A stretch of DNA of 47,009 bases. Source: Candidatus Rokuibacteriota bacterium (lineage in GTDB: Bacteria; Methylomirabilota; Methylomirabilia; Rokubacteriales; DASRDR01). The notes beneath the pieces were generated by a model. That model worked only from the letters and a program-made list of their open reading frames with translations. It was not told where the DNA came from and searched no databases. A program made the translations under genes and the position numbers. This document shows positions 1,817 to 15,219 of the stretch, in pieces. The first letter of the stretch is position 1. Each line of letters starts with the position of its first letter. The stretch spans positions 1 through 47,009 of the forward strand of contig JBIOTN010000078.1 in the NCBI GenBank assembly GCA_044866005.1, given 5' to 3'.

Positions 1817-1842
1817 GGAATAAGCCGGCTCGCCGCGGTGTT
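1817..1842 (+). promoter_or_regulatory. ECF (SigR/SigH-type) promoter GGAAT-N18-GTT
   Basis: GGAAT at 1817-1821 and GTT at 1840-1842, upstream of the RBS and ATG at 1866. Confidence 0.7.
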
Positions 1843-1865
1843 GCCCTGGTTGCCGGAGGGCGGCG

Positions 1866-2612
1866 ATGCTGGCGGCGCTCGACAGCGGGGTCAGCAGCTT
1901 GCGACGGCGAGCGGCACGAGGGGCGACCGGCGCCTCGCCGGAGAGCGAGGTCGCGTTCCGGACCGGCGTCGCGAGCGAGATCACCGGGATCAGCCAAGAC
2001 CGCCTCCAGGGCTGGCACCAGCGGGGCCTGCTCGCCCCGTCGGTGGCCGGCCCCGAGGTCCGGCCGCCACGCCAGGGCGTCGCCGGCCGGCGACCCGGCT
2101 CCGCCGGCCGGCGGTACAGCCTCGATGACCTGTTCCTCGCCCTGGTGATCCGGGAGCTCCTCGCCTCGAGCGTGCGCGTCGAGCGGGTGCGACTCGCGGT
2201 CGAGGCGCTCAAGGCTGCCTGCCCCGACCGCCCGCTGCGCCAGGCCCTGCGGGGCACGCGGCTGTGGCTCGTCGTGCCGCGAAGCGGCGCAGTCCGGCTG
2301 ATGGCCCGCCCGGGCGCCTCGAACGGGGGCGAGGATCGGCCGCAGGCGGTCGTGGCGCTTTCCCGCACGGCGCGAGCAGGGCGAGAGCTCTGGCTCGAAT
2401 GGCAGCGCCGGCGTCGCACACGGGCCGGCGACCGCGCCGGCCGTCGCCGGCGCGCCCGCGAGTCGGACCTGGAAGCTCAGCGCCTGCCGGCGGAACCCGA
2501 ATGGGCCGGGAACTCGCGCCGCCCTAGGTGCGCACCGAGGCCGCCTGCGTTCCACACTCCCGGTACGGAAACCGCCGGCTCTGCTTCGCCCGCGCCTCGA
2601 CCATCGCCGTGA
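1866..2612 (+). CDS. MerR-family HTH transcriptional regulator-like protein
   Basis: FRTGVASEITGISQDRLQGWHQRGLLAPS...RRYSLDDL matches a MerR HTH. The low-complexity tail overlaps the convergent gene, so the 3' end is uncertain. Confidence 0.65.
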   Translation: MLAALDSGVSSLRRRAARGATGASPESEVAFRTGVASEITGISQDRLQGWHQRGLLAPSVAGPEVRPPRQGVAGRRPGSAGRRYSLDDLFLALVIRELLASSVRVERVRLAVEALKAACPDRPLRQALRGTRLWLVVPRSGAVRLMARPGASNGGEDRPQAVVALSRTARAGRELWLEWQRRRRTRAGDRAGRRRRARESDLEAQRLPAEPEWAGNSRRPRCAPRPPAFHTPGTETAGSASPAPRPSP

Positions 2613-3045
2613 GCTGCCCCGCGTGCTCGCGCATGAAGCGGCGGAGGAACGGCCGCACGAGCAGCATGCCGACCAGCCAGCCGAACGTCCCTCCGCGGAG
2701 GCCGAACGTGCTCTCGTACCGAAAGCGCGTGCACCCGCCAACGTCCTCGAGGAGGAACCGGTCCCGCGCGAGGGCGAGCGGGCTCTCCACCGCCTCGAAG
2801 TCGATGCGCTCCGGCTCGTGGCGCGTGACCCAGTCCACTGACCGGTAGACCTGGCGCCGGCCCGTCACCGACCGGGTCACGGTGTGGAACTCGACGAGCA
2901 TCCGTCCGGCCTCCTCGCGCAGGACGCGGGACGATCCGCCGTCCGGCTGCCTGGCGCCGAAGGCTGTCAGCACCTGAAAGGCGAGGCGACGATCGGCATG
3001 GATGTGAACCTCGACCGGCTCCATGCGGATCGGGATGATCGCCAT
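2524..3045 (-). CDS. SRPBCC/START-like domain protein
   Basis: 173 aa with VHIHADRRLAFQVL, EPERIDF, GCTRFRYES and a C-terminal helix typical of SRPBCC. Directly downstream of the AhpD-like gene. Confidence 0.65.
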   Translation of the reverse strand: MAIIPIRMEPVEVHIHADRRLAFQVLTAFGARQPDGGSSRVLREEAGRMLVEFHTVTRSVTGRRQVYRSVDWVTRHEPERIDFEAVESPLALARDRFLLEDVGGCTRFRYESTFGLRGGTFGWLVGMLLVRPFLRRFMREHAGQLTAMVEARAKQSRRFPYRECGTQAASVRT

Positions 3046-3089
3046 GCGGCCGCGCGGTCAGGCGCCGGGACGTCCGAGACGCTCGCCTG

Positions 3090-3668
3090 TCACTCGGGGA
3101 CGCCGGGGAAGGTGGTTTTTGGCAGGGTCGCGTACTCGGGGTTCAGCTCGACCCCCAGCGCGTCGGCCACCCGCGTGATGAAGTTGAAGTAGCCGATGAT
3201 GCCGACCGCGTCCACGATCGCCTCGTCCGCGAAGCCCGCGGCCCGGAGCGCCCGGATGTCGGCTTCGCGGCACTCCCATTGCTGCGTGGTGAGCTTCCAC
3301 CCGAAATCGAGGAGCGCGCGCGTCCGACCGTCCACCGGCGCCGCCCGGTAGTCCCGCCCGATCGCGTCGGCGAGCGCCGGATCCCCCGTTTCAGCGCGAA
3401 GCCACGCCGAGTGGGCCTCGATTCAGTAGTGGCAGCGGTTGGCCGTCGAGACGACCAGCGCGAGCATCTCCCGCTGCGCGCGACCGAGCTCCGAGGGTCC
3501 GAACATCAGGGTCGTGAAGAGGCTCGTCGCCGACCGCGTCAGCTCGGGCCGGATGGTCGTGCTCTTGATGATGTTCGGGATCCAGCCTCGCTGGTTGAGG
3601 AGTCCCTCGTAGAGGCTCTTGACGTACCCGTCGGCCTGGGACTCTTCGACGGTCCTCACCCACGCCAT
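3090..3668 (-). CDS. AhpD/carboxymuconolactone-decarboxylase-like peroxidase-related protein, putative selenoprotein (CHYU, Sec82)
   Basis: ORFs 3423..3668 and 3090..3335 are in one frame, joined across TGA 3423-3425: REMLALVVSTANRCHY-U-IEAH...FNFITRVADALG. The TGA occupies the second Cys of the family CxYC motif. GGAGG RBS; downstream hairpin. Confidence 0.88.
3391..3410 (-). promoter_or_regulatory. SECIS-like hairpin
   Basis: TCGGCGTG-GCTT-CGCGCTGA: 8 bp including two GU pairs. The loop starts with G, 20 nt after the UGA. Confidence 0.6.
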
Positions 3669-3774
3669 CGAACGCCTCCTCCATCGGCGCGGCCCCGGGG
3701 TCGCCGCCCTCGGCGCCACGCCGTCCGGCGGCGGACTCGCAGCCGGCGGCACGCCGCTCTCGCCCTCAGGCTAC

Positions 3775-3800
3775 AACACGCGGGCGCGCCGCGACATTCC
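3775..3800 (-). promoter_or_regulatory. ECF promoter GGAAT-N18-GTT
   Basis: Minus strand GGAAT at 3800-3796 and GTT at 3777-3775, upstream of the AhpD-like selenoprotein gene. Confidence 0.72.
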
Positions 3801-3818
3801 CCGGCCGCGGCCCGGCGG

Positions 3819-4763
3819 CTACCGGGACGGCTCGGTCGGCGGAGGCCCGCTCGGCGCGGCGGGCGCAGCCTGCAGCTCCCGGCGGAGCCGGGCGATCGTG
3901 TCCTGCTCGAATTCCTGGAGGGATTGACCGAACGCGCGGCGGAAGTTCCCGAACCGGTCGTCGGAGGTCCGGAACATCCCGAAGTATCCGACCAGCGCGG
4001 GAAGCCCGTGGCGGCGGATCAGCTCGGCGGTCATGAGGAACGCCAGCCGGTAGGTCAAGCCGTCCCCCGTCTGCAGGTGGCGCGCCTCCCAGCCGCGGGG
4101 CCGCCCGAGGTCCACGAGGTCCAGCGGGACGGCGTCCAGGCGGCTGAGGTCCTCGCCGACGGCTCGCATCGCCGCCTCACGCTCGTCGCTGAGACGCGTC
4201 TGGCCGAGCCGCTCGAGCACCTGGCAGGCGACCCAGTCGGCCAGGCCCTCGCGCAGCCACTGCTCCGAGCTGCCGCGCCGCCCGGCGGACAGCTCGTACT
4301 GCGCGACGTGGGTCAGCTCGTGGGCCAGCACGACGAGCCAGGCGTGCGGGCGCCCCCGCCGCAAGGCGCCGTCGTTCAGGAACAGATGTCCCGCCTGGCC
4401 CAGACCGACCGAGTAGGCGGCGATCTCCGACGCCCGCCGGGCCGGCATCTGCCCCACTCCACGAAGCCCCGCGGCGTAGGCGGCGCGATCGGGATAGACG
4501 AATACCGTGAACTCGGCCGGCAGCGGAAGCCCGAGGTCGCCGATGATGATGGCCGAGATCGCCTCGATGGCGGCGTCGTAAGTCGTCGGCGGTTCGGCGG
4601 AGCGCGCGGGCGCGACGCTGTCGGGGGCGAGGCGGACGTGCAGGACCAGGCTCCGCCCGGCGCAGCCGGCGAGGAGAACGGCGACGAGCCCGAAAGCAGC
4701 GGCGCGCCCGCCCCGCCGTCCTCGGGGCATCGCCGCGCGGAAGCTCCCGACGTCCGTCCCCAC
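3819..4763 (-). CDS. Putative lipoprotein with zinc-metallopeptidase motif (peptidase MA-like)
   Basis: Lipobox LAGC, LAHELTHV (HExxH) and WLREGLAD. The start could be 4730. Confidence 0.72.
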   Translation of the reverse strand: MGTDVGSFRAAMPRGRRGGRAAAFGLVAVLLAGCAGRSLVLHVRLAPDSVAPARSAEPPTTYDAAIEAISAIIIGDLGLPLPAEFTVFVYPDRAAYAAGLRGVGQMPARRASEIAAYSVGLGQAGHLFLNDGALRRGRPHAWLVVLAHELTHVAQYELSAGRRGSSEQWLREGLADWVACQVLERLGQTRLSDEREAAMRAVGEDLSRLDAVPLDLVDLGRPRGWEARHLQTGDGLTYRLAFLMTAELIRRHGLPALVGYFGMFRTSDDRFGNFRRAFGQSLQEFEQDTIARLRRELQAAPAAPSGPPPTEPSR

Positions 4764-4945
4764 TCGCCCTCCCCCGATTGCCGCGTCGCCCCGAGGTGCC
4801 GCCCTTCAGGCCGTGGGGCGCCGCCGGGACGGCTACGGTTGTACCCGCTCGCCTCGCCGGGGTCCAGAGAAATCTCGGGCGGCGCAGCGCTCGTGAAGAT
4901 CGGCTCGAGCGGTGGGGAGGTCAGGCGCGAGGGGCGACACCGCGG

Positions 4946-5761
4946 TCAGGGCGCGGGCGGTCCGGCGCAGCGGAAGCCGATCAGGACGTGCCGGCTCTCT
5001 GCCGGCCGGCCATGGCGGAACGCGGGCCGGCAGAGGCCGGGCTCGTCGTCCCAGCCGCAGCCCTTGAGGACGCGCCGGCCGTCGGCGAGCGCCGAGGCGG
5101 TCCACTGGAAGACGTTGCCGACGGCGTCGAGGAGGCCGTAGGGGCTCGCGCCGGTCGGGTACCGGGTGACGGGAGTGGTCGCGCTCGGCCCGCGCGCCTC
5201 GCTGTTGAGCCGGTCGGGGTCCCAGCCATTGCCCCAGGGAAAGAGGTGCCCGTCGTCGCCCCGCGCCGCCTTCTCCCACTCGGCCTCCGAGGGCAGGCGC
5301 ACGGTCGGGTGGCGGGCACGGCAGAAGGCTGCCGCATCCGCCGCGCTCACGAGCACGACGGGGTGGTCGCCGAGACCCGCCGGCGGGTGGCCGTCGCGCC
5401 AGAGGTACCGCGTCACGACCCGGTCGTAGTCGTGCACGAGGAAGCCCTGGCGCCGGTAGTCCTCGCGGCTGATCCCCGGGGCGCGGTGGCCCGTCCGGGC
5501 CACGAACCGCTCGTACTCGGCCTGGGTGACCAGGTGACGATCGATGCAGAAAGCCGGCAGGCTCTCCTGCCGGCGGGGCAGCTCGGCGTCGAACCAGCGG
5601 GCCTCGCGCACGGCCGCGCTCGAGAGCGCGGCGGCCATGGCTCGCTCGGCCTGGTCGCTCCCCATCCAGAACGGGCCCGCCGGAACGAGCACCATGCGCT
5701 CCGCGTCGGCACACACCGCGCCGGCGGCGACGAGGGCGCCGAGGAACAGGCTACCGATCAC
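4946..5761 (-). CDS. FGE-sulfatase (SUMF1/EgtB/PvdO-like) domain protein, exported
   Basis: Signal peptide, VPAGPFWMGS, HPVVLVS, RLPSEAEWEKAARG, FPWG, SPYGLLDAVGNVFQW, IGFRC. Confidence 0.88.
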   Translation of the reverse strand: MIGSLFLGALVAAGAVCADAERMVLVPAGPFWMGSDQAERAMAAALSSAAVREARWFDAELPRRQESLPAFCIDRHLVTQAEYERFVARTGHRAPGISREDYRRQGFLVHDYDRVVTRYLWRDGHPPAGLGDHPVVLVSAADAAAFCRARHPTVRLPSEAEWEKAARGDDGHLFPWGNGWDPDRLNSEARGPSATTPVTRYPTGASPYGLLDAVGNVFQWTASALADGRRVLKGCGWDDEPGLCRPAFRHGRPAESRHVLIGFRCAGPPAP

Positions 5762-5767
5762 GGCCCG

Positions 5768-6765
5768 TCATCGTCCCCGGCGCGCCGGCAGCCGCCAGCG
5801 CACGGTCGGGGCTTTGAGCGCGAGCGTCGCGCCGGCGGCCATGGCGGCCGTCGCGACGGCGCTGTTGACGGACAGGATCGAAAGCCCGGTGAGGGCGTTG
5901 CCGACGTTGCAGCCGGCCGCCAGCGTGCCCCCGATGCCCATCAAGAGCCCGCCGGCAGCGCGGCGGCAGAGCTCGGAGGCGGGCGGGACCCGCCACCGAA
6001 CGCCTCCCTGGGGGCGCGCGCTCACGAACGTGCCGAGCGGCACCCGACCAGCATCGCCGTTCCCCAGGAGAGAGGCGCCACGGTGCGTCCCAGCACAGCC
6101 TCGACAAGCGAGCGGCTGGGGCCGGTCATCGACAGCCCCCAGGCCCACCCGGCAGCGGCTCCGGTCAACCAGGCGAGAACCCCGGCGGCGCCGAGGACCA
6201 CGCCCGTGGCCGACCACGGCCAGGCGCCCGGCTCGCGCGGCACAGGCGGCAGGCGCCGGAAGAGGGCAGCGATCGCGAGAATCGCCGCGGCAACGACCAG
6301 CCAGGCCGGCACGTCGAGGAGGGCGTCGAGCGACGGCGCGAGCGGGGGCCGCGACCGGGCCTCGCCGAGCCAGCCGGCGAGCGAGAGGAGCGGCCCCCGG
6401 ACTGTGAACAGGCCACCCAGGCCGAAGGCGAGGGCAGCCACGGTCGCGCCGACGCTTCCGGTCCCGGCCCGGGACCAGACCGACGTGGCTCACCCCTTGG
6501 CGAGGATCATACCCACGCCGAAGACGGCCCCGCCCACCGCCGCGCCGAGCACCGCGACGGGCGGCACGGGGACGCGGAGGAGCCCCCAGGCGGCCAGTCC
6601 ATTGACGGTGCCGAGCTGGAGGGCGAGCGCCAGAAGGTAGGCGCGCCCGGAGGGCCCGGCGTGGCCCGCGAGCGCCTCGCGAAAGGCCGAATGCATGCAG
6701 AAGTCCCCCCGATGCAGGGCAACCCCGAGGCCGAGGCCGACCAAAAGCGCAGCCGCCATCCACAT
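5768..6765 (-). CDS. YeeE/YedE-family sulfur-compound transporter, putative selenoprotein (Sec92), with one frameshift near 6044
   Basis: Motifs: HRGDFC, GGAVFGVGMILAKG-TGA(6490-6492)-ATS, and GGLLMGIGGTLAAGCNVG. Segments 6490..6765 and 6022..6441 share a frame. The C-terminus continues in another frame after GTCGGGTGCCG (one G missing). GAGGAGG RBS. Confidence 0.8.
6457..6479 (-). promoter_or_regulatory. SECIS-like hairpin
   Basis: TCTGGTCCCG-GGC-CGGGACCGGA: 10 bp with one GU pair. The loop starts with G, 20 nt after the UGA. Confidence 0.62.
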
Positions 6766-6776
6766 CTACCTCCTCG

Positions 6777-6802
6777 AACCCGCCGCGTGCCCGCGTCATT
6801 CC
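6777..6802 (-). promoter_or_regulatory. ECF promoter GGAAT-N18-GTT
   Basis: Minus strand GGAAT at 6802-6798 and GTT at 6779-6777, just upstream of the YeeE start. It would give a very short leader. Confidence 0.62.
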
Positions 6803-6819
6803 GCCGAGAAAGACCCACT

Positions 6820-6844
6820 GGAATAAACGGCGCCGGGCCGGGTT
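6820..6844 (+). promoter_or_regulatory. ECF promoter variant GGAAT-N17-GTT
   Basis: GGAATA at 6820 and GGGTT ending at 6844. Divergent from the YeeE promoter, upstream of the Cys-repeat peptide. Confidence 0.58.
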
Positions 6845-6882
6845 CTGGGTAGCAGCGGAGTGTGCTCCGCGGAAAGGGGGTG

Positions 6883-7107
6883 ATGCCCGTGGTGCGACGC
6901 GTGATCGGCACCGTCTCCGCGGCCGCGCTCCTGGCGCTGGGCGGCGGGGTGGCCGCGCAGCAGGCGAACCCGTGCGCCGCCAAGAACCCCTGTGCCGTGA
7001 AGGCCGGGAACCCGTGCGCCGCGAAGAACCCCTGCGCCGCGAAAAACCCCTGTGCGGCCAAGAACCCCTGCGCCGCCAAGAACCCCTGCGCGCCGAAGAC
7101 CCAGTAG
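6883..7107 (+). CDS. Small secreted Cys-rich peptide with seven NPCAAK-type repeats
   Basis: RBS AAAGGGGG; signal peptide ending VAA-QQ. The mature part is almost entirely NPCA(A/V/P)K. The start may be 6883, 6889 or 6892. Confidence 0.85.
   Translation: MPVVRRVIGTVSAAALLALGGGVAAQQANPCAAKNPCAVKAGNPCAAKNPCAAKNPCAAKNPCAAKNPCAPKTQ
6967..7098 (+). repeat. 18-nt coding tandem repeat (7 units, one 6-nt insertion)
   Basis: Units of AACCCSTGYGCSGCSAAR; variation is mostly synonymous third-position changes. Confidence 0.9.
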
Positions 7108-7117
7108 GGTGGGACCC

Positions 7118-7150
7118 CCGGGGCTGTCCCCCACCCCGGGACAGCCCCGG
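7118..7150 (+). terminator. Perfect 13-bp hairpin after the peptide gene (terminator or mRNA stabiliser, no U-tract)
   Basis: CCGGGGCTGTCCC-CCACCCC-GGGACAGCCCCGG. Confidence 0.55.
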
Positions 7151-7231
7151 AGGCGGGCGGCGGGCTGGACGGGGGTACACTCGGAACGACCGGCACGGGA
7201 TCGCGAGGTCCCGCCCCGGAACGCTTCAGGC

Positions 7232-7257
7232 GGAATAACCACGTGCCATTGCGGGTT
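7232..7257 (+). promoter_or_regulatory. ECF autoregulatory promoter GGAAT-N18-GTT
   Basis: GGAAT at 7232-7236 and GTT at 7255-7257, directly upstream of the sigma factor gene. Confidence 0.78.
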
Positions 7258-7280
7258 TACGATCTGAGCATCGCGGAAAG

Positions 7281-7868
7281 GTGCCGGTGATCGGCTGGAT
7301 GGCGGGGGACGACCGGGTCCGGGAGTTCGAGGAGACGGTGCTCGTCCACCTCGATGCCCTCTACCGAGTCGGGCTCCGGTTGACCCAGAACCGGGCCGAA
7401 GCCGAAGATGTGGCGCAGGAGACGTGCCTCCGGGCCTTCCGGAGCTTCCACCGCTTCAACGCGGGGACGAACTGTCGGGCCTGGCTCTTCACGATCCTGC
7501 GTAACGTCTTCCTGAACCGGCTGCGGCGGGCGGGGCGCGAGGCCGTCCCGACCGACCCGGCCGTGTGGGAGTCGGTGGGAGCAGAGAGCGTGACGGCGAT
7601 GACACCGGTCGCGGACAATCCCGAGGAGGAGTTCTTCCAGACGGTGCTCCACGGCGACGTGGATCGGGCCCTGAAGGGGTTGCCGCTCGTCTTCCGCGAG
7701 GCCGTGATCCTGGCCGACCTGGAAGGGCTCAGCTACAAGGAAATGAGCGAGGCCCTGGGCTGCCCGATCGGGACGGTGATGTCGCGGCTGTTCAGGGGAC
7801 GCAACCTCCTTCGTCACGCGCTCGCCCGGTACGCCCGCGAGCACGGATACATCAAGGGACCGGAATGA
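7281..7868 (+). CDS. ECF RNA polymerase sigma factor (SigR/SigH-like)
   Basis: AEDVAQETCLRAFRSFHRFNAGTNCRAWLFTILRN (region 2) and LEGLSYKEMSEALGCPIGTVMSRLFRGR (region 4). Alternative start at 7299. Confidence 0.93.
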   Translation: MPVIGWMAGDDRVREFEETVLVHLDALYRVGLRLTQNRAEAEDVAQETCLRAFRSFHRFNAGTNCRAWLFTILRNVFLNRLRRAGREAVPTDPAVWESVGAESVTAMTPVADNPEEEFFQTVLHGDVDRALKGLPLVFREAVILADLEGLSYKEMSEALGCPIGTVMSRLFRGRNLLRHALARYAREHGYIKGPE

Positions 7869-8647
7869 CCTGCGAAGAGTTTCGGGCGCGCCTGTCCCCG
7901 TACGCCGACGGCGAGGTCGGCGTCGACGAGACCCTCGCCGCGGACGCGCACGCCGCGCGGTGCGGCCGCTGCGAGGCCCTCGTCGCGCGCGAACGGCAGT
8001 TCCGCCAGCTCCTGCGGCGTCAGCCGCGGGAGTCGGCGCGCCCGGAGCTTCGCGCCCGGATCCTCGCGGAGTGCCGCCGGGAGGTGCGTCGGGCGCGGCT
8101 CCGACCCTGGCTCTGGGCCCCGCCCCTCGCGGCCGCGGCGGCCCTGGCGGTCGCGGCGCTCCTGCCGGCGACGCGCCCGGCCCCGCCTGTCGTCGGGCAG
8201 CTCGTGGCCGTTCACCTCGCGTACGCGGAGCTCGAGCGCCCGGCGGAGTTCGCCTCGACCGATCGCGCCGAGGTCGAAGAGTGGTTCCATCAGCGCGCGC
8301 GGCTTCGCGTCATCGTGCCGGACTACTCGTCGGCGGGGATCCGCCTGGTCGGCGGGCGCATCGCCGAGGTCCGCGAGCGGCGCGCCGCGTATCTCCTCTA
8401 CGAGAAGGGGCACACGCTCCTGTCGGTCTTCATGCTGCCCGTCCCGGCCGGTGACCTGCGCCTCACCGGCACGCGCAGGAGCTCCGGGGGGTTTGAGTAC
8501 TACACCGAGGAGCGGAACGGGCTCCGCACCGTCTCCTGGACGGAGGGAGAGTCGCTCTTCGGGCTCGTGTCCATGCTGGACTACGACGCCCTCTTCGAGT
8601 GCGCGGACCGGCTGCGCGCCGAGCGGGCAAGCCAACGTCCACTCTAG
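7865..8647 (+). CDS. Zinc-finger (zf-HC2/ZAS) transmembrane anti-sigma factor
   Basis: ATGA overlap with the sigma gene. MTCEE...HAARCGRC (HxxxCxxC), a TM helix and an extracytoplasmic domain. Confidence 0.9.
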   Translation: MTCEEFRARLSPYADGEVGVDETLAADAHAARCGRCEALVARERQFRQLLRRQPRESARPELRARILAECRREVRRARLRPWLWAPPLAAAAALAVAALLPATRPAPPVVGQLVAVHLAYAELERPAEFASTDRAEVEEWFHQRARLRVIVPDYSSAGIRLVGGRIAEVRERRAAYLLYEKGHTLLSVFMLPVPAGDLRLTGTRRSSGGFEYYTEERNGLRTVSWTEGESLFGLVSMLDYDALFECADRLRAERASQRPL

Positions 8648-8657
8648 GCGCCGCGCC

Positions 8658-9764
8658 GTGCGACTCCGCGTCCCCGCTCTCACGGTGGCGGCCGCCGGGC
8701 TGGCGCTCGGGATCGCCTGGGCCTGGGCCGGGCCGGTCACGCTCCGGACGGACGCGAGCAAGGCGCTCGTCCCGCTGGACGAGATCATCTCGGGCGGCCC
8801 GCCGCCCGACGGCATCCCCGCGATCGACCGGCCGGCCTTCGTGAGCCCGGCGGAGGCCGCGGGCTGGCTCACGCCGCAGGAGCCCGTCCTGGCCGTCGAG
8901 ATCGGCGGGGACGCCCGCGCCTACCCGCTCCAGATCCTGATGTGGCACGAGATCGTCAACGACACGGTGGGCGGGCGGCCCGTCGCGGTCACCTACTGCC
9001 CCCTCTGCAACTCCGGCCTGGCGTTCGATCGCGTCGTGGACGGGACCCCGTTCGACTTCGGGACCTCCGGGAAGCTCTACAAGAGCGACCTCGTCATGTA
9101 CGACCGCCAGACGCACTCCCTCTGGGCGCAGATGGAGGGGCGCGCCATCGTCGGGGAGCGCGCGGGCAGTCGCCTCGCCCGGATCCCCGCGAACACGATC
9201 GCCTTCGCCGAATGGCGGGCCGCCCACCCGCGGGGCAAGGTCCTCTCCCGGGAGACCGGGCACCGCCGGGCCTACGGCGCCAACCCGTACACCTCGTACG
9301 ACCAGCCGACGCTCCAGCCCTTCCTCTTCGACGGCCGGCCGGACCCGCGGCGCCCGCCGAAGGAGCGGGTCGTCGGGCTCACGCTCGGCGGACAGCCGCG
9401 CGCCTACCCGTGGCCCGTCCTGGAGCAGGCGCGCGTCGTCCACGATCAGGTCGGCGGCGAGCGCGTCGTGATCTTCTACCAGCCGGGCACGCTCTCGGCC
9501 CTCGACGGGTCGCGGATCGCGGAGTCGCGGGCCATCGGCGCGACGGCTGCCTTCAGCCCCGTGCTCGACGGCCGGGCGCTGACCTTCGAGCCCGCGCATG
9601 ACGGCTTCCGCGACCGGGAGACGGGGAGCCTCTGGAACCTCCTGGGCCACGCGGCCAAGGGACCGCTCGCCGGCAAGCGCCTGCGTCCCGTGCCCCACGT
9701 CGACGCCTTCTGGTTCGCCTGGGCCGCGTTCAACCCGACCACCACGATCCACGGGACGCCGTGA
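8658..9764 (+). CDS. DUF3179 domain protein, exported
   Basis: SGGPPPDGIPAID, RAYPLQILMWHEIVND, VTYCPLCNSG, FGTSGKLYKSDLVMYDRQT, FWFAW. Confidence 0.88.
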   Translation: MRLRVPALTVAAAGLALGIAWAWAGPVTLRTDASKALVPLDEIISGGPPPDGIPAIDRPAFVSPAEAAGWLTPQEPVLAVEIGGDARAYPLQILMWHEIVNDTVGGRPVAVTYCPLCNSGLAFDRVVDGTPFDFGTSGKLYKSDLVMYDRQTHSLWAQMEGRAIVGERAGSRLARIPANTIAFAEWRAAHPRGKVLSRETGHRRAYGANPYTSYDQPTLQPFLFDGRPDPRRPPKERVVGLTLGGQPRAYPWPVLEQARVVHDQVGGERVVIFYQPGTLSALDGSRIAESRAIGATAAFSPVLDGRALTFEPAHDGFRDRETGSLWNLLGHAAKGPLAGKRLRPVPHVDAFWFAWAAFNPTTTIHGTP

Positions 9765-10363
9765 CGGCCGCCGAGGAGCTCGTCTCCCTGCTCGAAGGGC
9801 TCGAACGCGCCGGCAGCTCGGTGATGGCGCTCGTTCGCGGGGGCCGGCCCGGGGTCCCGTGGACCCTCTACCCGAACGAGTGGGGGATCTTCGACCGCCG
9901 GACGCGCTGCCAGTTCTACTACCACGCCCACGCGGGCGCGGAGCACGAGGACGGCCACTTCCACATGGTCCGCCTCTTCCCGGACCACACCGTCCACGTG
10001 GCCGCGGTCTCGATGGCGCCGAGCGGCTGGCCCCGCGCGCTCTTCACCGTGAACCTCTGGGCGATCGGCGACGCGTACGCGCCTGCGGACGAGCTCAAGC
10101 GGCACGCGCGCCAGTTCCGGCTGTTCCGGGCGCGCGGCGACGCGCGTGTGGTCCGCTTCGTCAACCTCCTCTTCCGCGCCTTCCTCCCCGAGATCGAGTG
10201 GCTCCAGGACGAGAAGGAGCGGACGCTCGCCGCCTACCGCGCCGCGCACCCGGACGCCGACCCGTTCCAGGACCGCTCGCTCGAGGTCCTGAGCCAGATC
10301 GCGCTCGACGTCCGCGAGCGCCGCGAGGCGGGGGTGGCGGCCGTGCCGGGCCTCAGGGCATGA
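9761..10363 (+). CDS. His-motif hypothetical protein (DUF6969-like)
   Basis: GTGA overlap; QFYYHAH...EHEDGHFH...LFTVNLW. Confidence 0.72.
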   Translation: MTAAEELVSLLEGLERAGSSVMALVRGGRPGVPWTLYPNEWGIFDRRTRCQFYYHAHAGAEHEDGHFHMVRLFPDHTVHVAAVSMAPSGWPRALFTVNLWAIGDAYAPADELKRHARQFRLFRARGDARVVRFVNLLFRAFLPEIEWLQDEKERTLAAYRAAHPDADPFQDRSLEVLSQIALDVRERREAGVAAVPGLRA

Positions 10364-10935
10364 GACGCGCCGTCGTCCGGCTCCTGCTCGCCGCTGCCCT
10401 CGCCCTGGGCGGCCTTGCGGCCGCGGGCGCCGGGACGCCGGGGACCGGGCCGGCGCCCGAGCTGTGGCGCGCGGCGGGCGTCACGCGGATGGCCCGGGGC
10501 GTCGCGGCACGACCGTTCGTGCTGCCGGACCTCCGGGGCACGCCCGTTCGCCTCCAGGACTTGCGCGGGCGCGTCGTCCTGCTCTACTTCTGGGCCACCT
10601 GGTGACCGCACTGCGCGAGGGAGTTACCCTCGATCGACGCGCTGGCCCGTGAGCTCGGCGGCCGTGGCCTCACCGTCCTCCTGATCGATCTGTACGAGGA
10701 CAGAGACACCGTCGCGGCGGCCGTGGCCCAGCGGGGCTACACCGTGCCCGTCCTCCTGGACCGCGACGGGCAGGCCGCCGACGCCTTCGGCGTCCACGCC
10801 ACGCCGACGGTCTTCCTGATCGGACGCGACCGCATGATCCTCGGGAGCGCGATCGGACCCCGATCCTGGGACCGTCCGGAAGCGCGCGCGCTGCTCACGG
10901 CGCTCCTCGAGGCCACGCCGGTCCCGGCCCGCTGA
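10360..10935 (+). CDS. TlpA/ResA-like thiol:disulfide redoxin, putative selenoprotein (WUPHC, Sec82)
   Basis: ATGA overlap; signal peptide. FVLPDLRG...GRVVLLYFWATW-TGA(10603-10605)-PHCARELP...FGVHATPTVFLI continues in frame to 10935. Confidence 0.9.
10616..10632 (+). promoter_or_regulatory. SECIS-like hairpin
   Basis: CGAGGG-AGTTA-CCCTCG; loop 16 nt after the UGA. It includes a TTA codon, rare in such GC-rich DNA. Confidence 0.62.
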
Positions 10936-10994
10936 GAGCCGCGGCGGAGCCCGGCGGTCCAGAGAGCCGCTCGCGTGGCGTCCGCCGCCATCCT

Positions 10995-11861
10995 TCAGAC
11001 CGCCAGGAGGATGACGCCGACGACGATCAGGCTCGCGCCGGTCAGGCGCTGCGGCCGGTTCGGCTCGCCGAGGGTCACCACGCCGAGCAATGTCCCGAAG
11101 ACGATCCCGAGCTCCCGAGCGGGCGCCACGTAGCTGACCGGGGCCAGGCGAAGCGCGAACAGCACGAGGACGTAGCCCGACGTCATCAACAGCGCGACCG
11201 CCGGGATCGCCAGGCGGTTCGCGCGCCACTCTGCGGCGATCGCCCCGGGTCGCCGCGCGGCGGCCGGCGTGAGCAGGAGCGCGGCGACCGGGATCGTGAG
11301 GTAGGCGTAGAGGAGCGGGTCGGCCCCGCGCGTCACGTTCCACTTGTCCACGACCGAGTACGTCGCGGTGATGAGGCCCGTGAGCGCGGCGGGGCGGGCG
11401 TGGGGCAGGCGGAGGGCCCGGAACGGCGCGAGGAGGTCGGCGGTGGCGAGGCCCGGCAGGTGCAGGACGTAGACGCCCAGGGCGACGGCGCCGATCCCGA
11501 GCGCGCCCACGGCCGACGGCCGCTCGCCCAGGAGGAGGATCGCGACCGGCGGCACGAGCACCGGCGCCATGCCTCGGGCCAGCGGGTAGACGAGCGAGAG
11601 GTCGCCTCGCGCGTAGGCGGCGCCGAGGGCGCCGAAGTACGCGGCCCGCAGGGTCGCCGCCAGCGCGATCCCCGCCCAGAGCCCGGCCTCGCCGGGCCAG
11701 GCCGGGCGCCACCAGACGAGGGCGGGCAGGAAGAGCAGCGAGCCCGCCAGGCCCGTCCACCAGAGGAAGAGCGGCTTGTCCCGGCTCGCCTTCGTCAGGA
11801 GGTTCCAGACCGCGTGGAAGACGGCGGACGTCGTGACGAGGAGGAGGGCGAGGCCGGTCAC
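10995..11861 (-). CDS. EamA/DMT-family transporter
   Basis: SAVFHAVWNLLTK, GDLSLVYPLARG, VAPARELGIVFG...LGE; about 10 TM segments. Confidence 0.88.
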   Translation of the reverse strand: MTGLALLLVTTSAVFHAVWNLLTKASRDKPLFLWWTGLAGSLLFLPALVWWRPAWPGEAGLWAGIALAATLRAAYFGALGAAYARGDLSLVYPLARGMAPVLVPPVAILLLGERPSAVGALGIGAVALGVYVLHLPGLATADLLAPFRALRLPHARPAALTGLITATYSVVDKWNVTRGADPLLYAYLTIPVAALLLTPAAARRPGAIAAEWRANRLAIPAVALLMTSGYVLVLFALRLAPVSYVAPARELGIVFGTLLGVVTLGEPNRPQRLTGASLIVVGVILLAV

Positions 11862-11918
11862 GGCTCGCCGGCCGGCGGGCGAGCCGCCTCGGCCCCGGCC
11901 GCCGCGCGCCCGCGCGCC

Positions 11919-12443
11919 TCAGTGCTCGAGCTCGGTCCCCAGGGCTTCGTTGACGCGGTTGGTGAAGTTGGCGGCCGCGACGCTCAGCGTGAGCTGCACG
12001 AGGGCCTCCGGTGACAGATGGCGCTGGAGCGCCTCGACCAGCGCGGGATCCACCTGCACCTTCCGCGTCATCTCCTCGGCGTACCGGAGAACGAGCCGCT
12101 CGAGCTCGGAGAAGAGCGGGCTGGTCGCGTAATCCGAGAGCGCGTCGAGCTTCTCTTTGGGGACCCCGACCCTCTGCCCGAGGGCCGCGTTGTGGGTCGC
12201 TCAGTAACGGCAGCCGTTGAGCTGCGAGGCCTTCACGTACGCGAGCTGGCGGAGCTTGATGTCGAGCGCGCCCTCCCGGAGCGTCGGGTACCACTGGAGG
12301 AACGGCGGCAGGGAGCGCGCGTGGTGCGCCATCAGCTTGAAGAAGTTCCCGACGCGCCCCGTGGCCTTCTGCAGGCCGTCGTATGCCGCCTGGACCTCGG
12401 GGGGCGCCTGGTCGCGCTCCACGTAGGGAAGCCTCGCCGCCAT
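11919..12443 (-). CDS. Second AhpD/CMD-family protein, putative selenoprotein (CRYU, Sec81)
   Basis: LRQLAYVKASQLNGCRY-TGA(12201-12203)-ATH...FSELERLVLRYAEEMT...ANFTNRVNEALGTELEH-stop. The C-terminal half is absent from the ORF track. AAGGAG RBS. Confidence 0.88.
12167..12187 (-). promoter_or_regulatory. SECIS-like hairpin
   Basis: CGGCCCTC-GGGCA-GAGGGTCG: 8 bp, G-rich loop 21 nt after the UGA. Confidence 0.62.
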
Positions 12444-12556
12444 CGCTCTCTACTCCTTTGCCGTCGCCGCGGCTCCATCATGCGGCAACAGCCGGGTGAC
12501 CGTCCAGCGCGTCCCGCGGCGCGCCGCCGGCTGCGCACGGCGCCGCGTAGCGTGCG

Positions 12557-13219
12557 CTAGCGGCCGAGGGCCGCGGCGAGCGCGGTCAGGTCCGGCACCG
12601 TGAGGTCCGGCGTCAGCCCGAGCCCGTCGAGCGGCGCCTTCCCGCGGTTGACCCAGACGACCGGGAAGCCGTACGCTTTCGCGCCGATGACGTCCCAGCC
12701 GTTGGACGAGACGAACCCGATCGCCTCCTTGGGGAGGCCGAGTCGCGCGGGCCCCAGCGCGTAGACCTCCGGGGCCGGCTTGAACCGGCGGACCGCGTCC
12801 ACGCTGATGACGGCCGTGAGGAGGCTTCCGAGACCGGCGTGCGCCACGACGGCGTCGAGCATCTTCGGCGCGCCGTTCGAGAGGATGGCGCAGGGGATGC
12901 CCCGGAGGCGCTCCAGCACCGCGCGCACCTCGGGATACGGGTCCAGGCGCAGGTAGGCGTCCATGAGGCGGGCGCGCTGGGCCGCGCCGACCTCGAGTCC
13001 CAGGCGGCGGCACGCGAAGTCGAGCGCCGCCTCGGTGACGGTCCAGAAGTCCTCGTAGCGCCCCATGAGCGTGCGGAGCCACGTGTACTCGAGCTGCTTC
13101 GCGCGCCAGACGTTGGAGAGCGCCGCGGGATCGCTGGTGACCGCGCGGCCGGCCTCGATGACCGAGTGGACGTCGAAGAGCGTGCCGTAGGCGTCGAACA
13201 GGAGCCCCTTGACCTGCAT
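12557..13219 (-). CDS. Haloacid dehalogenase type II
   Basis: FDAYGTLFD, WRAKQLEYTW, LSNG, KPAPEVY, VSSNGWD. AGGAGG RBS before ATG 13219. Confidence 0.92.
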   Translation of the reverse strand: MQVKGLLFDAYGTLFDVHSVIEAGRAVTSDPAALSNVWRAKQLEYTWLRTLMGRYEDFWTVTEAALDFACRRLGLEVGAAQRARLMDAYLRLDPYPEVRAVLERLRGIPCAILSNGAPKMLDAVVAHAGLGSLLTAVISVDAVRRFKPAPEVYALGPARLGLPKEAIGFVSSNGWDVIGAKAYGFPVVWVNRGKAPLDGLGLTPDLTVPDLTALAAALGR

Positions 13220-13249
13220 CGCGCGCACCTCCTGGGGGCCGGCGTCGGC

Positions 13250-13278
13250 TTGCCAGCTCCGGGTCGAACCCGTACAAT
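13250..13278 (+). promoter_or_regulatory. Sigma70-type promoter TTGCCA-N17-TACAAT
   Basis: Near-consensus hexamers with a 17-nt spacer, ending 9 nt before GTG 13288 (near-leaderless). Confidence 0.65.
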
Positions 13279-13287
13279 GAGCGCGCC

Positions 13288-13521
13288 GTGGCGCGGACGG
13301 TCACCTACAAAGGCCACCAGATCCGGGCGCACGCCGTCCTGGTCCCCGACTCCGACGAAGGGGACTGGGCCGCGCAGGCGGTGGTCCGAGTCCCCGTCCC
13401 GGGCGGCGGGCGCGAGCAACGGCTTCCGGACCCCGACGACCGCATCTTCGCCACGCAGGAAGACGCCGAAGGCTACGCCGTCCACCTGGCGATGCGGTGG
13501 GTCGACCGGCACGGCCTGTGA
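13288..13521 (+). CDS. Small hypothetical protein
   Basis: 77 aa, GC3-biased codons, promoter immediately upstream, GTGA coupling to the next gene. Confidence 0.7.
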   Translation: MARTVTYKGHQIRAHAVLVPDSDEGDWAAQAVVRVPVPGGGREQRLPDPDDRIFATQEDAEGYAVHLAMRWVDRHGL

Positions 13522-13856
13522 CGCCGCGCCGGGCGCTCGGCTGCCTCGGGGCGCTCGGGCTCGCCGCCTGCGCGAGCTTCGCGCCCTTGCGCCAGCCCCC
13601 GCTCGCGCCATCGGCGGACCCGACCGCCGGCGTCAGCACGCGCGCCGACGCGATCGCGCGATTCGGTCCCCCGGACGAAGTGCGCGCCTCGGACCTCGGC
13701 GAGGTGCTGGTCTACCGCCGGCGCGTCGTCGTGGACGCCAACCCGAACCGCTTCTACGGCATCGATCGGGGCGCGCGGTTCGACCGGTACGAGCGTCTGT
13801 TCCTCTACCTGGACGCCGACGGCCGCATCGTCCGCTGGACGGCCGAGCCGGAGTAA
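13518..13856 (+). CDS. Hypothetical lipoprotein
   Basis: Lipobox LAAC; TRADAIARFGPPD resembles small SmpA/OmlA-like lipoproteins. Confidence 0.65.
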   Translation: MTPRRALGCLGALGLAACASFAPLRQPPLAPSADPTAGVSTRADAIARFGPPDEVRASDLGEVLVYRRRVVVDANPNRFYGIDRGARFDRYERLFLYLDADGRIVRWTAEPE

Positions 13857-14036
13857 TGTAGCGCGACCGAGCGGTGCGCCGTCAACCGGAATCGCGCTGT
13901 CATCGCGCCCGCCATCCTGGTCGCCGCCGACCCCGGTGATCGCCATCGTGGCGCGGCGGTGACCGCCGCCTCGCGGACGGACGGCACCCACCGCACGGCG
14001 CGAGCTCACCGCTCGTCGCCTCCAGGTGCGAGCCCG

Positions 14037-14062
14037 GGAATATTCCCATCGGGCTCGGGGTT
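14037..14062 (+). promoter_or_regulatory. ECF promoter GGAAT-N18-GTT
   Basis: GGAAT at 14037-14041 and GTT at 14060-14062, in an AT-rich patch upstream of doxX-merF-grx. Confidence 0.72.
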
Positions 14063-14181
14063 TTATCTTTACAAACCCGAGCCGGCGCGGAGCCATCGGA
14101 CGAGGCTCGCCGCGCGCAGCCGCTCGCCGCCCGGGGCGCGGACGGCCGGTGGGGATGTCGGCTCGCGTTGTGGAGGCCCCG

Positions 14182-14700
14182 ATGAGCGGGAATGTCGTTG
14201 GCCTGGACGCGCGCGTTCCGGGGTGGCCGCTGGCCCTGTTCCGGATCGCCTTTGGGATCCTCTACCTCGACATGGCCCTGCAAAAGGCGCCATGGAAGAA
14301 CTACGGCTGGCTCGGCGGGTTCATCGAGCAAGAGATCGCCCATCCCGCCGTTCCGTCGGTCGCGGCCTTCCTCAAGGCGGTCGTGCTCCCGAACCTCGCG
14401 GTGTTCGGGATGGTGACGTTCCTCGTCGAGATCGCTCTGGGCGCGGCGCTCCTGCTCGGCGTCCTGACGCGCCTGGTCGGGATCGCCGGGTTCGCCTGGC
14501 AGCTCAACATCGCCCTCCAAGCCTACGCCGTCCCTGGCGAGTGGTACTGGGTCTGGCCGCTCCTGGCGCTGCCCCAGCTGTGCTTCGCCTTCGGGGATGC
14601 CGGCCAGATCCTCGGAGTCGACCGCTGGCTTCAGCCTTGGCTCCGCGAGCGCGCCCACCAGGGCGCCAGCTGGGCCGGCCTCCTCGCGCGTGCGACCTGA
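14182..14700 (+). CDS. DoxX/DoxD-like membrane protein
   Basis: GGAGG RBS; LALFRIAFGILYL...K, EIALGAALLLGVLTR, LGVDRWL. Confidence 0.82.
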   Translation: MSGNVVGLDARVPGWPLALFRIAFGILYLDMALQKAPWKNYGWLGGFIEQEIAHPAVPSVAAFLKAVVLPNLAVFGMVTFLVEIALGAALLLGVLTRLVGIAGFAWQLNIALQAYAVPGEWYWVWPLLALPQLCFAFGDAGQILGVDRWLQPWLRERAHQGASWAGLLARAT

Positions 14701-14752
14701 CGGCGCCCGCGGCGGCACCGTCTCGGCAGCGCCGCCGATCCATCCCGACCGC

Positions 14753-14995
14753 ATGGACGCATCGAAGTGGTTTCGAATCGGCACCCTGGGAACGATCGTG
14801 GCCGCGATCTGCTGCTCGACCCCCATCCTGGCGCTGGTCCTCGGGGCCCTGGGGCTGAGCGCCTGGTTGAGCTCGGCCGACTACGTGCTGATTCCGACCC
14901 TCCTCGCGTTCGCGGGGCTCACCGGGTATGCCGCCTACCGCATGCGCCGGGAACGCCGGCAACGCCGGCCGGAAGCGTCGGCAGGTGAGCCGTGA
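14753..14995 (+). CDS. merF: MerF-like mercury/heavy-metal transport protein
   Basis: IGTLGTIVAAICCSTPILALVLGALGLSAW...DYVLIP matches the MerF pattern (vicinal CC in TM1). Confidence 0.78.
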   Translation: MDASKWFRIGTLGTIVAAICCSTPILALVLGALGLSAWLSSADYVLIPTLLAFAGLTGYAAYRMRRERRQRRPEASAGEP

Positions 14996-15219
14996 AACAG
15001 GTGGTCGTCTACTCGCAGCCCGGCTGACTCTTCTGCGGCAAGCTGAAAGAGTTTCTTTCAGCCAAGGGCGTGCCGTACGTGGAGCGGGACATCTCGGCCG
15101 ACCCGCAAGCGCTCGCCGAACTGTCGGAACTCGGCTACATGACGACGCCGGTCGCCAAGATCGACGGGGACGTGGTCGTCGGGTTCGACCGGCGGCGACT
15201 GGAGACGCTGCTCGCCTGA
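14992..15219 (+). CDS. Glutaredoxin/NrdH-like protein, putative selenoprotein (ULFC, Sec12); absent from the ORF track
   Basis: GTGA overlap with merF. Sequence: MKQVVVYSQPG-TGA(15025-15027)-LFCGKLKEFLSAKGVPYVERDISADPQALAELSELGYMTTPVAKIDGDVVVGFDRRRLETLLA. Confidence 0.9.
15042..15062 (+). promoter_or_regulatory. SECIS-like hairpin
   Basis: GCTGAAAGA-GTT-TCTTTCAGC: perfect 9 bp, loop 23 nt after the UGA, built from AT-rich codons. Confidence 0.75.

Follow-up and report, generated by a model that had tools for sequence, protein, structure and literature searches.

Are selenoprotein genes that lie close together in a bacterial genome merely neighbours, or can several of them stand under one inducible sigma factor? 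This question is raised by an island of 13 kb, between positions 1817 and 15219 of a 47,009-nucleotide stretch of DNA from a Candidatus Rokuibacteriota bacterium (assembly GCA_044866005.1, contig JBIOTN010000078.1; the whole stretch is referred to here as the window), in which five genes with an in-frame TGA are arranged around an extracytoplasmic function (ECF) sigma factor gene and an anti-sigma gene. An earlier sequence-only reading took the island for a thiol- and metal-stress system under one ECF sigma factor similar to SigR and SigH of Actinobacteria. The cataloguing of bacterial selenoproteins has proceeded mainly by gene family, and nothing on the coordination of their expression was found in the literature searched. 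Considered as a whole, the island is in our judgement probably best explained as a local regulon of one SigH/SigR-type ECF sigma factor that serves a response to thiol-reactive stress.

The host genome comprises 4.67 Mb in 247 contigs, is 94% complete and carries the island on contig C78. Because lists of open reading frames (ORFs) are noisy in DNA of 73% G+C, genes were called from codon-position G+C with TGA read through, and families were assigned by Pfam and NCBIfam profile searches of the island ORFs. Twenty-nine related loci were retrieved from public genomes by anti-sigma alignment, and their record titles mostly name Candidatus Rokubacteria/Rokuibacteriota or Methylomirabilota, with a few Binatia or Gemmatimonadales. 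Many of these contigs are short, so gene counts over the 29 loci are lower bounds. Motif counts per related locus include the unpublished genome G038, and a survey of 201 genomes includes G038 and G164; no result depends on them. Gene identities, selenocysteine (Sec) recoding, motif enrichment and conservation were all established by computation.

Selenocysteine-Encoding Genes of the Island

The five in-frame TGA codons reported earlier were recovered, one per gene and each at a position equivalent to an active-site Cys. CMD-A, an AhpD-like peroxidase-related protein (3090..3668, − strand; TIGR01926, 147 bits, above cut-off), has its TGA at 3423-3425 (NRCHY-U), where the U stands opposite the second Cys of CFYC (CxxC) in an alignment with the solved homologue 2pfx. 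CMD-B, a second AhpD/YciW-like protein (11919..12443, −), reads NGCRY-U at 12201-12203. The YeeE/TsuA-family transporter (5768..6765, −; Pfam Sulf_transp, 121 bits) reads ILAKG-U at 6490-6492, the exported TlpA/ResA-like redoxin (10360..10935, +; U-P-H-C) reads WATW-U-PHC at 10603-10605, and the glutaredoxin-like protein Grx (14992..15219, +; U-L-F-C) reads PG-U-LFC at 15025-15027. The Sec motifs are thus of the CxxU type in both CMD proteins, G-U in YeeE and UxxC in TlpA and Grx, and reading U as C brings the Grx and CMD-B sequences into register with the CxxC of their Pfam families.

The machinery on which the sequence-only reading depended is present in full: tRNA-Sec was identified at C79:3620-3717, the SelA and SelB genes lie beside it on the same contig, and SelD is encoded with a TGA of its own. 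A stringent genome scan, which asked for coding signal on both sides of the TGA and a Cys within three residues, returned 21 TGA sites, three of them in the window; this filter misses Grx and YeeE. Among 15 aligned matches to TlpA in the 29 related loci, ten carry TGA and five Cys at the site, with W-U-P-H-C in closer orthologues and W-C-P-P-C in more distant ones. The TGA is also kept in YeeE (2/2), CMD-B (2/2), CMD-A-like (1/1) and Grx (1/1) genes of related loci, with protein sequence conserved on both sides.

Single-sequence folds after the TGAs, for which YeeE and CMD-B were entered from 3 nucleotides past the codon, are unexceptional (z −2.0 to +1.3), and evidence for hairpins was therefore taken from alignments. 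The SECIS-like (selenocysteine insertion sequence) hairpin of TlpA (10616-10632) has 6 bp and starts 10 nucleotides past the TGA, and across 12 sequences three of its pairs show compensatory changes and none is broken. Hairpins of YeeE, CMD-B and Grx are conserved as well, but over only three to four sequences each, and CMD-A has a single-sequence fold only. Rfam at the gathering threshold gave no match in the window. The conservation of TGA, the co-variation of the TlpA hairpin and the complete machinery support reading the five as genuine selenoprotein genes.

Sigma Factor and Anti-Sigma Factor

The ECF sigma factor (7281..7868, +), assigned by Pfam, PDB sequence match and NCBIfam, opens a tightly packed operon, in which it is followed by the anti-sigma factor (7865..8647, +; 260 amino acids, zf-HC2 at 31 bits), an exported DUF3179 protein with CPLC (8658..9764, +), a His-rich DUF6969 protein without signal peptide (9761..10363, +) and Sec-TlpA. 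Overlaps of four nucleotides occur at the sigma/anti-sigma, DUF3179/DUF6969 and DUF6969/TlpA junctions. The closest solved relative of the sigma factor is Mycobacterium tuberculosis SigH (8e-37), ahead of SigE, and fragments of Streptomyces coelicolor SigR also match.

Anti-sigma factors of the RsrA type are small soluble cytoplasmic proteins of approximately 100 amino acids. In the island protein, the zinc-motif residues C3, H29, C33 and C36 are invariant across eight orthologues and are spaced as in RsrA (C-x25-H-x3-C-x2-C). Its AlphaFold model (mean predicted local distance difference test [pLDDT] 84) contains a hydrophobic helix at residues 85-99 and a folded C-terminal beta domain at residues 160-257, which by Foldseek is closest to RseB/MucB (E 4e-4 to 1e-2 over approximately 100-120 columns) and includes the invariant C246 on the periplasmic side; a PDB sequence search with the anti-sigma factor found no match. 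The claimed likeness to SigR/SigH therefore stands in the closest solved relative of the sigma factor, in the ligand spacing and in the GGAAT/GTT promoter described below, and does not extend to a soluble anti-sigma factor. Because the anti-sigma factor spans the membrane and has a periplasmic domain, the pair is a variant, rather than a member, of the actinobacterial SigR/SigH-RsrA system.

A Shared Promoter Motif

SigR-type promoters keep approximately 18 nucleotides between GGAAT (−35) and GTT(G) (−10). Six copies of GGAAT-N17/18-GTT were counted in the window, where 0.46 would be expected, and 0 of 100 shuffles reached this number. All six sites lie within 1817-14062, in intergenic DNA, each upstream of a unit and in the direction of that unit. 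The motif scan placed promoter-like sites before the MerR-like gene (1817..1842, +) and before CMD-A with its SRPBCC neighbour (3775..3800, −), both GGAAT-N18-GTTG, before YeeE with FGE (6777..6802, −), before a Cys-repeat peptide gene (6820..6844, +; N17), before the sigma operon that ends in TlpA (7232..7257, +), where the site would be autoregulatory, and before the DoxX-MerF-Grx unit (14037..14062, +). Four of the five Sec genes are thus in units behind the shared motif, as had been read from the sequence, with CMD-B as the exception. The elements GGAAT and GTTG are those reported for SigR promoters (PMC5005934).

Across the genome, 19 matches at N18 and 12 at N17 were counted (31 in total), and other spacings between N12 and N25 gave 4 to 16 each. 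N17 alone is therefore at background level and only N18 stands out. Six of the 31 matches fall in this 13 kb and three on contig C175 (locus L075), where sites at 4971, 11655 and 11900 form a second cluster. These face a porin gene on one side and, on the other, genes for a CarboxypepD_reg protein, a dihaem cytochrome c, a second Sec-TlpA (W-U-P-H-C) and a multihaem cytochrome. Matches on contigs C73 and C150 precede M6 peptidase and phospholipid synthesis genes and were excluded as members of the regulon.

The motif recurs in relatives. It lies at most 40 nucleotides upstream of 24 of 26 orthologous sigma genes, which were those with at least 100 nucleotides of upstream sequence in Rokubacteria/Methylomirabilota metagenome-assembled genomes (MAGs), and it also precedes orthologues of YeeE (3/3), FGE (2/3) and CMD-B (1/2) and 4 of 16 peptide matches in other genomes. 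Each related locus has between 1 and 10 sites. This recurrence, before the sigma gene and before several accessory units, supports the earlier proposal that one sigma factor may drive the island.

Conservation in Related Genomes

The predicted co-occurrence of these genes elsewhere was found for a core, which consists of sigma (26/29 related loci), anti-sigma (27/29), DUF3179 (19/29), DUF6969 (11/29) and TlpA (11/29), with Sec-TlpA as the form typical of the core, and the accessory genes change around it. The Cys-repeat peptide was identified in 8/29 loci, FGE in 3/29, and YeeE, CMD-B and HAD in 2/29 each; Grx, MerF, DoxX, SRPBCC, the M48-like and the CMD-A-like genes were each found in 1/29. 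The same core is present in the Binatia-titled locus L059. In the survey of the phylum, the anti-sigma factor was detected at E <= 1e-30 in 54 of 201 sampled genomes and in 37 of 104 high-quality ones, and it is patchy within the window's own family (3 of 15 genomes).

Other genes behind the motif in relatives encode multihaem cytochromes followed by DUF302, SoxA/TsdA-like cytochromes, porins, DUF547 proteins and BNR propellers, and the Sec genes among them encode Sec-containing AhpC/TSA proteins and CMD selenoproteins. In genome G041, a bufferin-type operon, DUF2282-MbnB/TglH/ChrH-DUF2063 (L053:7285-9243, −), is divergent from the sigma gene and stands behind the same motif. The 6.2-Mb near-complete genome with L053 contains the strict motif GGAATA-N16/17-GTT four times in all, and two of these four sites are the divergent pair at the sigma locus.

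In the most distant loci, L070 and L071, the operon consists of sigma, anti-sigma and a Cys-form TlpA, and a CcdA/DsbD_TM gene, a likely supply of reductant for the redoxin, comes next at L071:5985-6716 (+). One related island contains a DDE_3 transposase gene immediately behind a motif site (L044:13517-14608, −), which hints at rearrangement of the islands by mobile elements.

The YeeE Gene and Its Frameshift

The presence of YeeE with an in-frame TGA agrees with the earlier description, which for this gene needs one correction: it also carries a one-base frameshift near 6040, in a run of G that is a single base too short to keep the frame. Against the YeeE of Spirochaeta thermophila (PDB 6LEO) the protein scores 79 bits over residues 5-234, with U92 aligned to C91 and C23 to C22, and it scores below cut-off against the TsuA equivalog models. 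Three pathway-Cys positions were recognized, C23, U92 and a GGTLAAGC motif in the C-terminal part, which together with this third Cys runs on in another frame. Orthologues in L043 and L044 are uninterrupted, with approximately 345 amino acids and one TGA.

The break is matched without indel in contigs of four other sequencing runs from two studies, three of which span the whole 1.2 kb. It is therefore real in the population rather than an error of one assembly. The gene may be undergoing decay, or two separate products may be made from it; at the break, a GTG of the new frame is a possible start for the C-terminal one. No domain of the YeeD/TsuB (TusA-like) partner was seen among the island ORFs scanned. 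The promoter-like site ends 11 nucleotides before the ATG, and the distance to the start codon is 7-13 nucleotides in the window and in all three orthologues, which suggests that the YeeE mRNA is leaderless.

The Cys-Repeat Peptide and DUF3179

The secreted Cys-repeat peptide of the sequence-only reading is a 74-residue product (6883..7107, +) with a signal-like N-terminus and seven NPC(A/x)AK units. It matched no Pfam or NCBIfam family and has no DUF2282 domain, and the literature search found no paper that mentions the NPCAAK motif. The repeat was identified in 19 distinct frames (window plus the 31 loci L044-L074). In related islands (L044, L047, L049, L054, L056, L058, L060, L061, L065, L068 and L069) it is also found as a C-terminal tail, both on SoxA/TsdA-like cytochromes c and on exported proteins of two other kinds. 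Between the TAG stop of the peptide gene and the sigma promoter lies a G+C-rich inverted repeat (approximately 7117-7151), a possible terminator without a T run.

The structure model of DUF3179 (pLDDT 81) has two tandem Rieske-like domains, with H83 and C100-P-L-C103 at the would-be Rieske cluster site. VIA-align matched each half to Rieske domains at Z 8.0-8.4, a level near 8 that is common for VIA-align, and Rieske proteins fill nearly all of the top 42 rows. Foldseek gave no match at E <= 0.001, and a PDB sequence search gave a single row at E 0.05. A homologue search yielded only close orthologues among the 120 listed, and these add no depth to the fold alignment. The first Cys is replaced by Sec (W-U-P-L-C) in L072:8130-9092 (−) and in a second copy at L039:376-1212 (−), and DUF3179 is a listed selenoprotein family (PMC13188914).

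Other Genes of the Island

Pfam confirmed the families named earlier, namely CMD (twice), Sulf_transp, AhpC-TSA/Redoxin, Glutaredoxin, Sigma70_r2/r4, zf-HC2, DUF3179 (CPLC), DoxD/DoxX, MerF and FGE-sulfatase. The match of the MerR-like regulator is weak and covers the helix-turn-helix only (MerR_1, 27.3 bits vs. cut-off 21.6). Its gene (1866..2612, +) shows clear coding signal only to approximately 2300, and the tail is rich in Arg and Pro; a counterpart was found in none of the 29 related loci. An SRPBCC/polyketide-cyclase-like gene (2524..3045, −; 26.7 bits, just below the cut-off of 27.4) lies 3′ of CMD-A. It is followed in the window, beyond CMD-A, by a gene for an exported HExxH protein, a putative metallopeptidase (3819..4763, −) with sub-threshold Pfam matches to BSP and M48 and a homologue in relatives L038/L039, and by a gene for an FGE-sulfatase-domain protein with a signal-like N-terminus (4946..5761, −; 144 bits) that scores below cut-off against EgtB and SenA models.

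The DoxX/DoxD-family membrane protein (14155..14700, +) is as described apart from its start, which was corrected to 14155 because the promoter of the unit lies at 14037-14062. The next gene encodes a MerF-like two-helix protein with one CC pair only (14753..14995, +; NF033565, 84 bits vs. cut-off 50), the stop of which overlaps the start of Grx (GTGA). Neither MerA nor MerP was found among the island ORFs, and the neighbour of MerF is the Sec glutaredoxin. An EamA transporter and a HAD hydrolase are also encoded in the island (Pfam/NCBIfam), and a PDB sequence search with DUF6969 found no match.

Two overlapping tandem paralogues at 651-1220 (−) and 1180-1737 (−) encode membrane-anchored products with a repeated "DG-P-L" beta-like unit and have no Pfam family. 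A small ORF at 13288-13521 (+), between the HAD gene and the DoxX promoter, has a sub-threshold CV_2116 match and a counterpart in none of the 29 related loci.

Proposed Mechanism and Alternatives

From these results we infer the specificity of the sigma factor for its promoter, the trigger and all biochemical roles in the following scheme. At rest, the sigma factor would be held by the membrane-spanning anti-sigma factor, which would present an RsrA-like zinc-thiolate domain to the cytoplasm and an RseB/LolA-like domain to the periplasm. A thiol-reactive insult, for which a soft metal (Cu, Hg), a thiol oxidant and a reactive sulfur or selenium species are candidates, would release it, and the freed sigma factor would then transcribe from GGAAT-N17/18-GTT promoters. 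The predicted regulon would comprise the sigma-anti-sigma-DUF3179-DUF6969-Sec-TlpA operon, Sec-YeeE with the FGE-like gene, the secreted NPCAAK peptide, Sec-CMD-A with SRPBCC, the unit of DoxX, MerF-like protein and Sec-glutaredoxin, the MerR-like gene, and the second locus on C175 with its porin, c-type cytochromes and further Sec-TlpA. Its products would be mostly envelope proteins, the accessory ones rich in cysteine, selenocysteine or haem. The Cys-repeat peptide and MerF/Grx might bind or buffer the thiophilic agent, Sec-TlpA might keep exported cysteines and cytochrome CXXCH sites reduced, and CMD and Grx might repair damage in the cytoplasm; selenocysteine would contribute a faster nucleophile that resists over-oxidation.

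A sigma-dependent regulon with genuine Sec genes is very likely present, to judge from the sequence data. If it is, a soft metal would be the leading candidate for the trigger, with somewhat under an even chance, oxidant or disulfide stress is possible and is held a little less readily, and sulfur or selenium species appear unlikely. The gene content of core and accessory units, the precedent of the bufferins and the bufferin-type operon behind the motif in one relative are the reasons for reading the island as a response to thiol-reactive stress in envelope and cytoplasm, and for ranking a soft metal ahead of an oxidant and both ahead of sulfur or selenium species.

Several observations weigh against this interpretation. 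The top NCBIfam model of the sigma factor, TIGR02947 (SigH_actino), scores 155 bits against a cut-off of 251.6, that of the anti-sigma N-terminus, RsrA, scores 39 against 62.5, and the anti-sigma factor, with one membrane span and a periplasmic domain, is not of the soluble RsrA type. The names YeeE/TsuA, SoxA/TsdA-like cytochrome and DoxD suggest sulfur chemistry no less than they suggest metals, and MerA, CopA, Cus and thioredoxin reductase were not seen among the island ORFs scanned. The YeeE frameshift, and the decay that it may reflect, belong here as well, as does the lack of a motif upstream of CMD-B in the window. The motif is short, with a genome-wide background of 4-16 matches per spacing (N12 to N25), so that chance could account for each site taken singly; this applies most of all to the MerR-like gene, which is without counterpart in the 29 loci. 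Accessory gene content also differs among relatives, and because of this, and because only four strict sites occur in the near-complete L053 genome, the regulon is small and fluid.

Much of the same evidence bears on three other explanations. If the TGAs were ordinary stops, the genes would be truncated or pseudogenes, which can hardly be the case: YeeE does have a real frameshift, and single-sequence hairpin energies are unexceptional in 73% G+C DNA, but relatives keep TGA at the identical codon with conserved protein sequence past it, more distant homologues replace Sec with Cys, co-variation is seen in the TlpA hairpin and the genome encodes the whole Sec machinery. Alternatively, the genes might be neighbours without common control, with the motif read by another sigma factor or partly fortuitous and only the sigma operon autoregulated. 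This is compatible with the genome-wide background, the two matches before unrelated genes (M6 peptidase, phospholipid synthesis) and the variable accessory genes, but we consider it quite improbable given six intergenic and correctly oriented sites in 13 kb where 0.46 would be expected in 47 kb, the motif before orthologous YeeE, FGE and some peptide genes in other genomes, and the divergent pair that makes up two of the four strict sites in the 6.2-Mb relative.

A third possibility is that the island is a sulfur or selenium metabolic module, for thiosulfate uptake or oxidation or for the selenium supply of a large selenoproteome, and that the sigma factor acts as a nutrient or substrate switch. 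The YeeE protein belongs to the TsuA thiosulfate-transporter family with Sec in the substrate path, DoxD/DoxX is the name of a subunit of thiosulfate:quinone oxidoreductase, SoxA/TsdA-like cytochromes c, multihaem cytochromes and porins stand behind the same motif in relatives, and the phylum has a MAG with 63 predicted selenoprotein genes (PMC13188914). The DoxD and TsdA matches are weak, however, and YeeE is broken here and present in few related loci. A Pfam scan saw no YeeD/TusA, rhodanese, Sox, persulfide dioxygenase or SelD genes in the island, there is no motif near selA, selB or selD, and the SigH/RsrA type is a stress design, so that we regard such a module as improbable and retain the thiol-stress regulon as the preferred explanation.

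Within that regulon, the NPCAAK units might conceivably constitute a new unmodified periplasmic thiolate buffer for soft metals or chalcogens, present both in the free secreted peptide and in the protein tails, kept reduced and loaded or unloaded by Sec-TlpA and the CPLC/UPLC double-Rieske-like DUF3179, and read by the RseB-like domain, with cytoplasmic thiol stress read through the zinc site, which would make the anti-sigma factor the two-compartment sensor of a selenoprotein regulon. We put this forward as a speculative and rather unlikely idea.

Significance and Comparison With Known Systems

Several selenoprotein genes together with a defined sigma factor and a defined promoter make up a testable unit, in the phylum with the largest predicted bacterial selenoproteome, for asking whether selenocysteine is an inducible stress tool rather than a constitutive catalyst. 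Functional context is also gained for DUF3179, DUF6969 and a new cysteine-repeat motif.

All five Sec families have been catalogued with the matching motif type, CxxU, UxxC or, for YeeE, G-U, under the names AhpD-like TIGR01926, CMD-like, YeeE/YedE, thiol:disulfide interchange/TlpA-like and glutaredoxin (PMC13188914), and an abundance of selenoproteins is already known for the phylum. The earlier suggestion that the system is undescribed therefore holds for the regulon and fails for these families. Clustering of selenoprotein genes is likewise known, from Prx-like plus AhpD-like clusters and from the SAO and Tso operons (PMC13188914). Those clusters are pathway operons, whereas the link here is a shared sigma-dependent promoter over several units; in that review the words "sigma", "promoter" and "regulon" are absent, and "transcription" appears solely in the title of a reference. 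A literature search for selenoproteins with ECF sigma factors, and for Rokubacteria with selenocysteine, gave nothing relevant by title or abstract, with subscription journals and supplements lying outside its scope. What looks new is the sigma-factor regulon itself, the membrane-spanning anti-sigma factor of the RsrA type and the NPCAAK Cys-repeat peptide.

Among individual components, YeeE resembles the YeeE (TsuA) of S. thermophila in the aligned pathway positions (C23/U92 with C22/C91 of 6LEO) and differs in that Sec replaces the central Cys, in the frameshift and in having no adjacent YeeD/TsuB. Bufferins, which chelate copper, are Cys peptides from an operon that also contains DoxX and is under the control of the ECF pair SigF/NrsF (PMC11626156). 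The island shares with the SigF-NrsF bufferin operons of Caulobacter vibrioides (bufABCD) an ECF sigma factor, secreted Cys peptides and DoxX, which in the bufferins serve under metal stress (PMC11626156). Unlike them, its peptide is a simple NPCAAK repeat, no MNIO or DUF2063 gene stands beside the peptide gene in the window, and the sigma/anti-sigma pair is of a different type.

The membrane anti-sigma factor, with its periplasmic sensing side and the RseB/MucB fold as best structural match, recalls RpoE-RseA-RseB of Escherichia coli and AlgU-MucA-MucB of Pseudomonas. Here, in contrast, the RseB-like fold lies inside the anti-sigma factor itself, joined to a zinc-binding RsrA-type domain, and the match is weak (E 4e-4).

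Thioredoxin/thioredoxin reductase and low-molecular-weight-thiol genes belong to the SigR/SigH regulon. In the island, neither trxBA nor mycothiol genes were identified, and the ORFs behind the other 22 genome-wide motif matches are only partly annotated. With SigR-RsrA of S. coelicolor and SigH-RshA of M. tuberculosis the island has in common a sigma factor whose closest solved relative is SigH, GGAAT...GTT(G) promoters, the RsrA ligand spacing, predicted autoregulation and a regulon dominated by thiol redox functions. It differs in its 260-residue anti-sigma factor, which includes a membrane helix and a folded domain in the periplasm, in a regulon that is small, local and mostly exported and whose redox enzymes are selenoproteins, and in a host that belongs to Methylomirabilota rather than Actinobacteria. 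The SigR/SigH-RsrA design is extended here to an anti-sigma factor that spans the membrane and is two-sided, and the system is best described as SigR/SigH-like, with a small, mobile-looking and selenoprotein-rich regulon.

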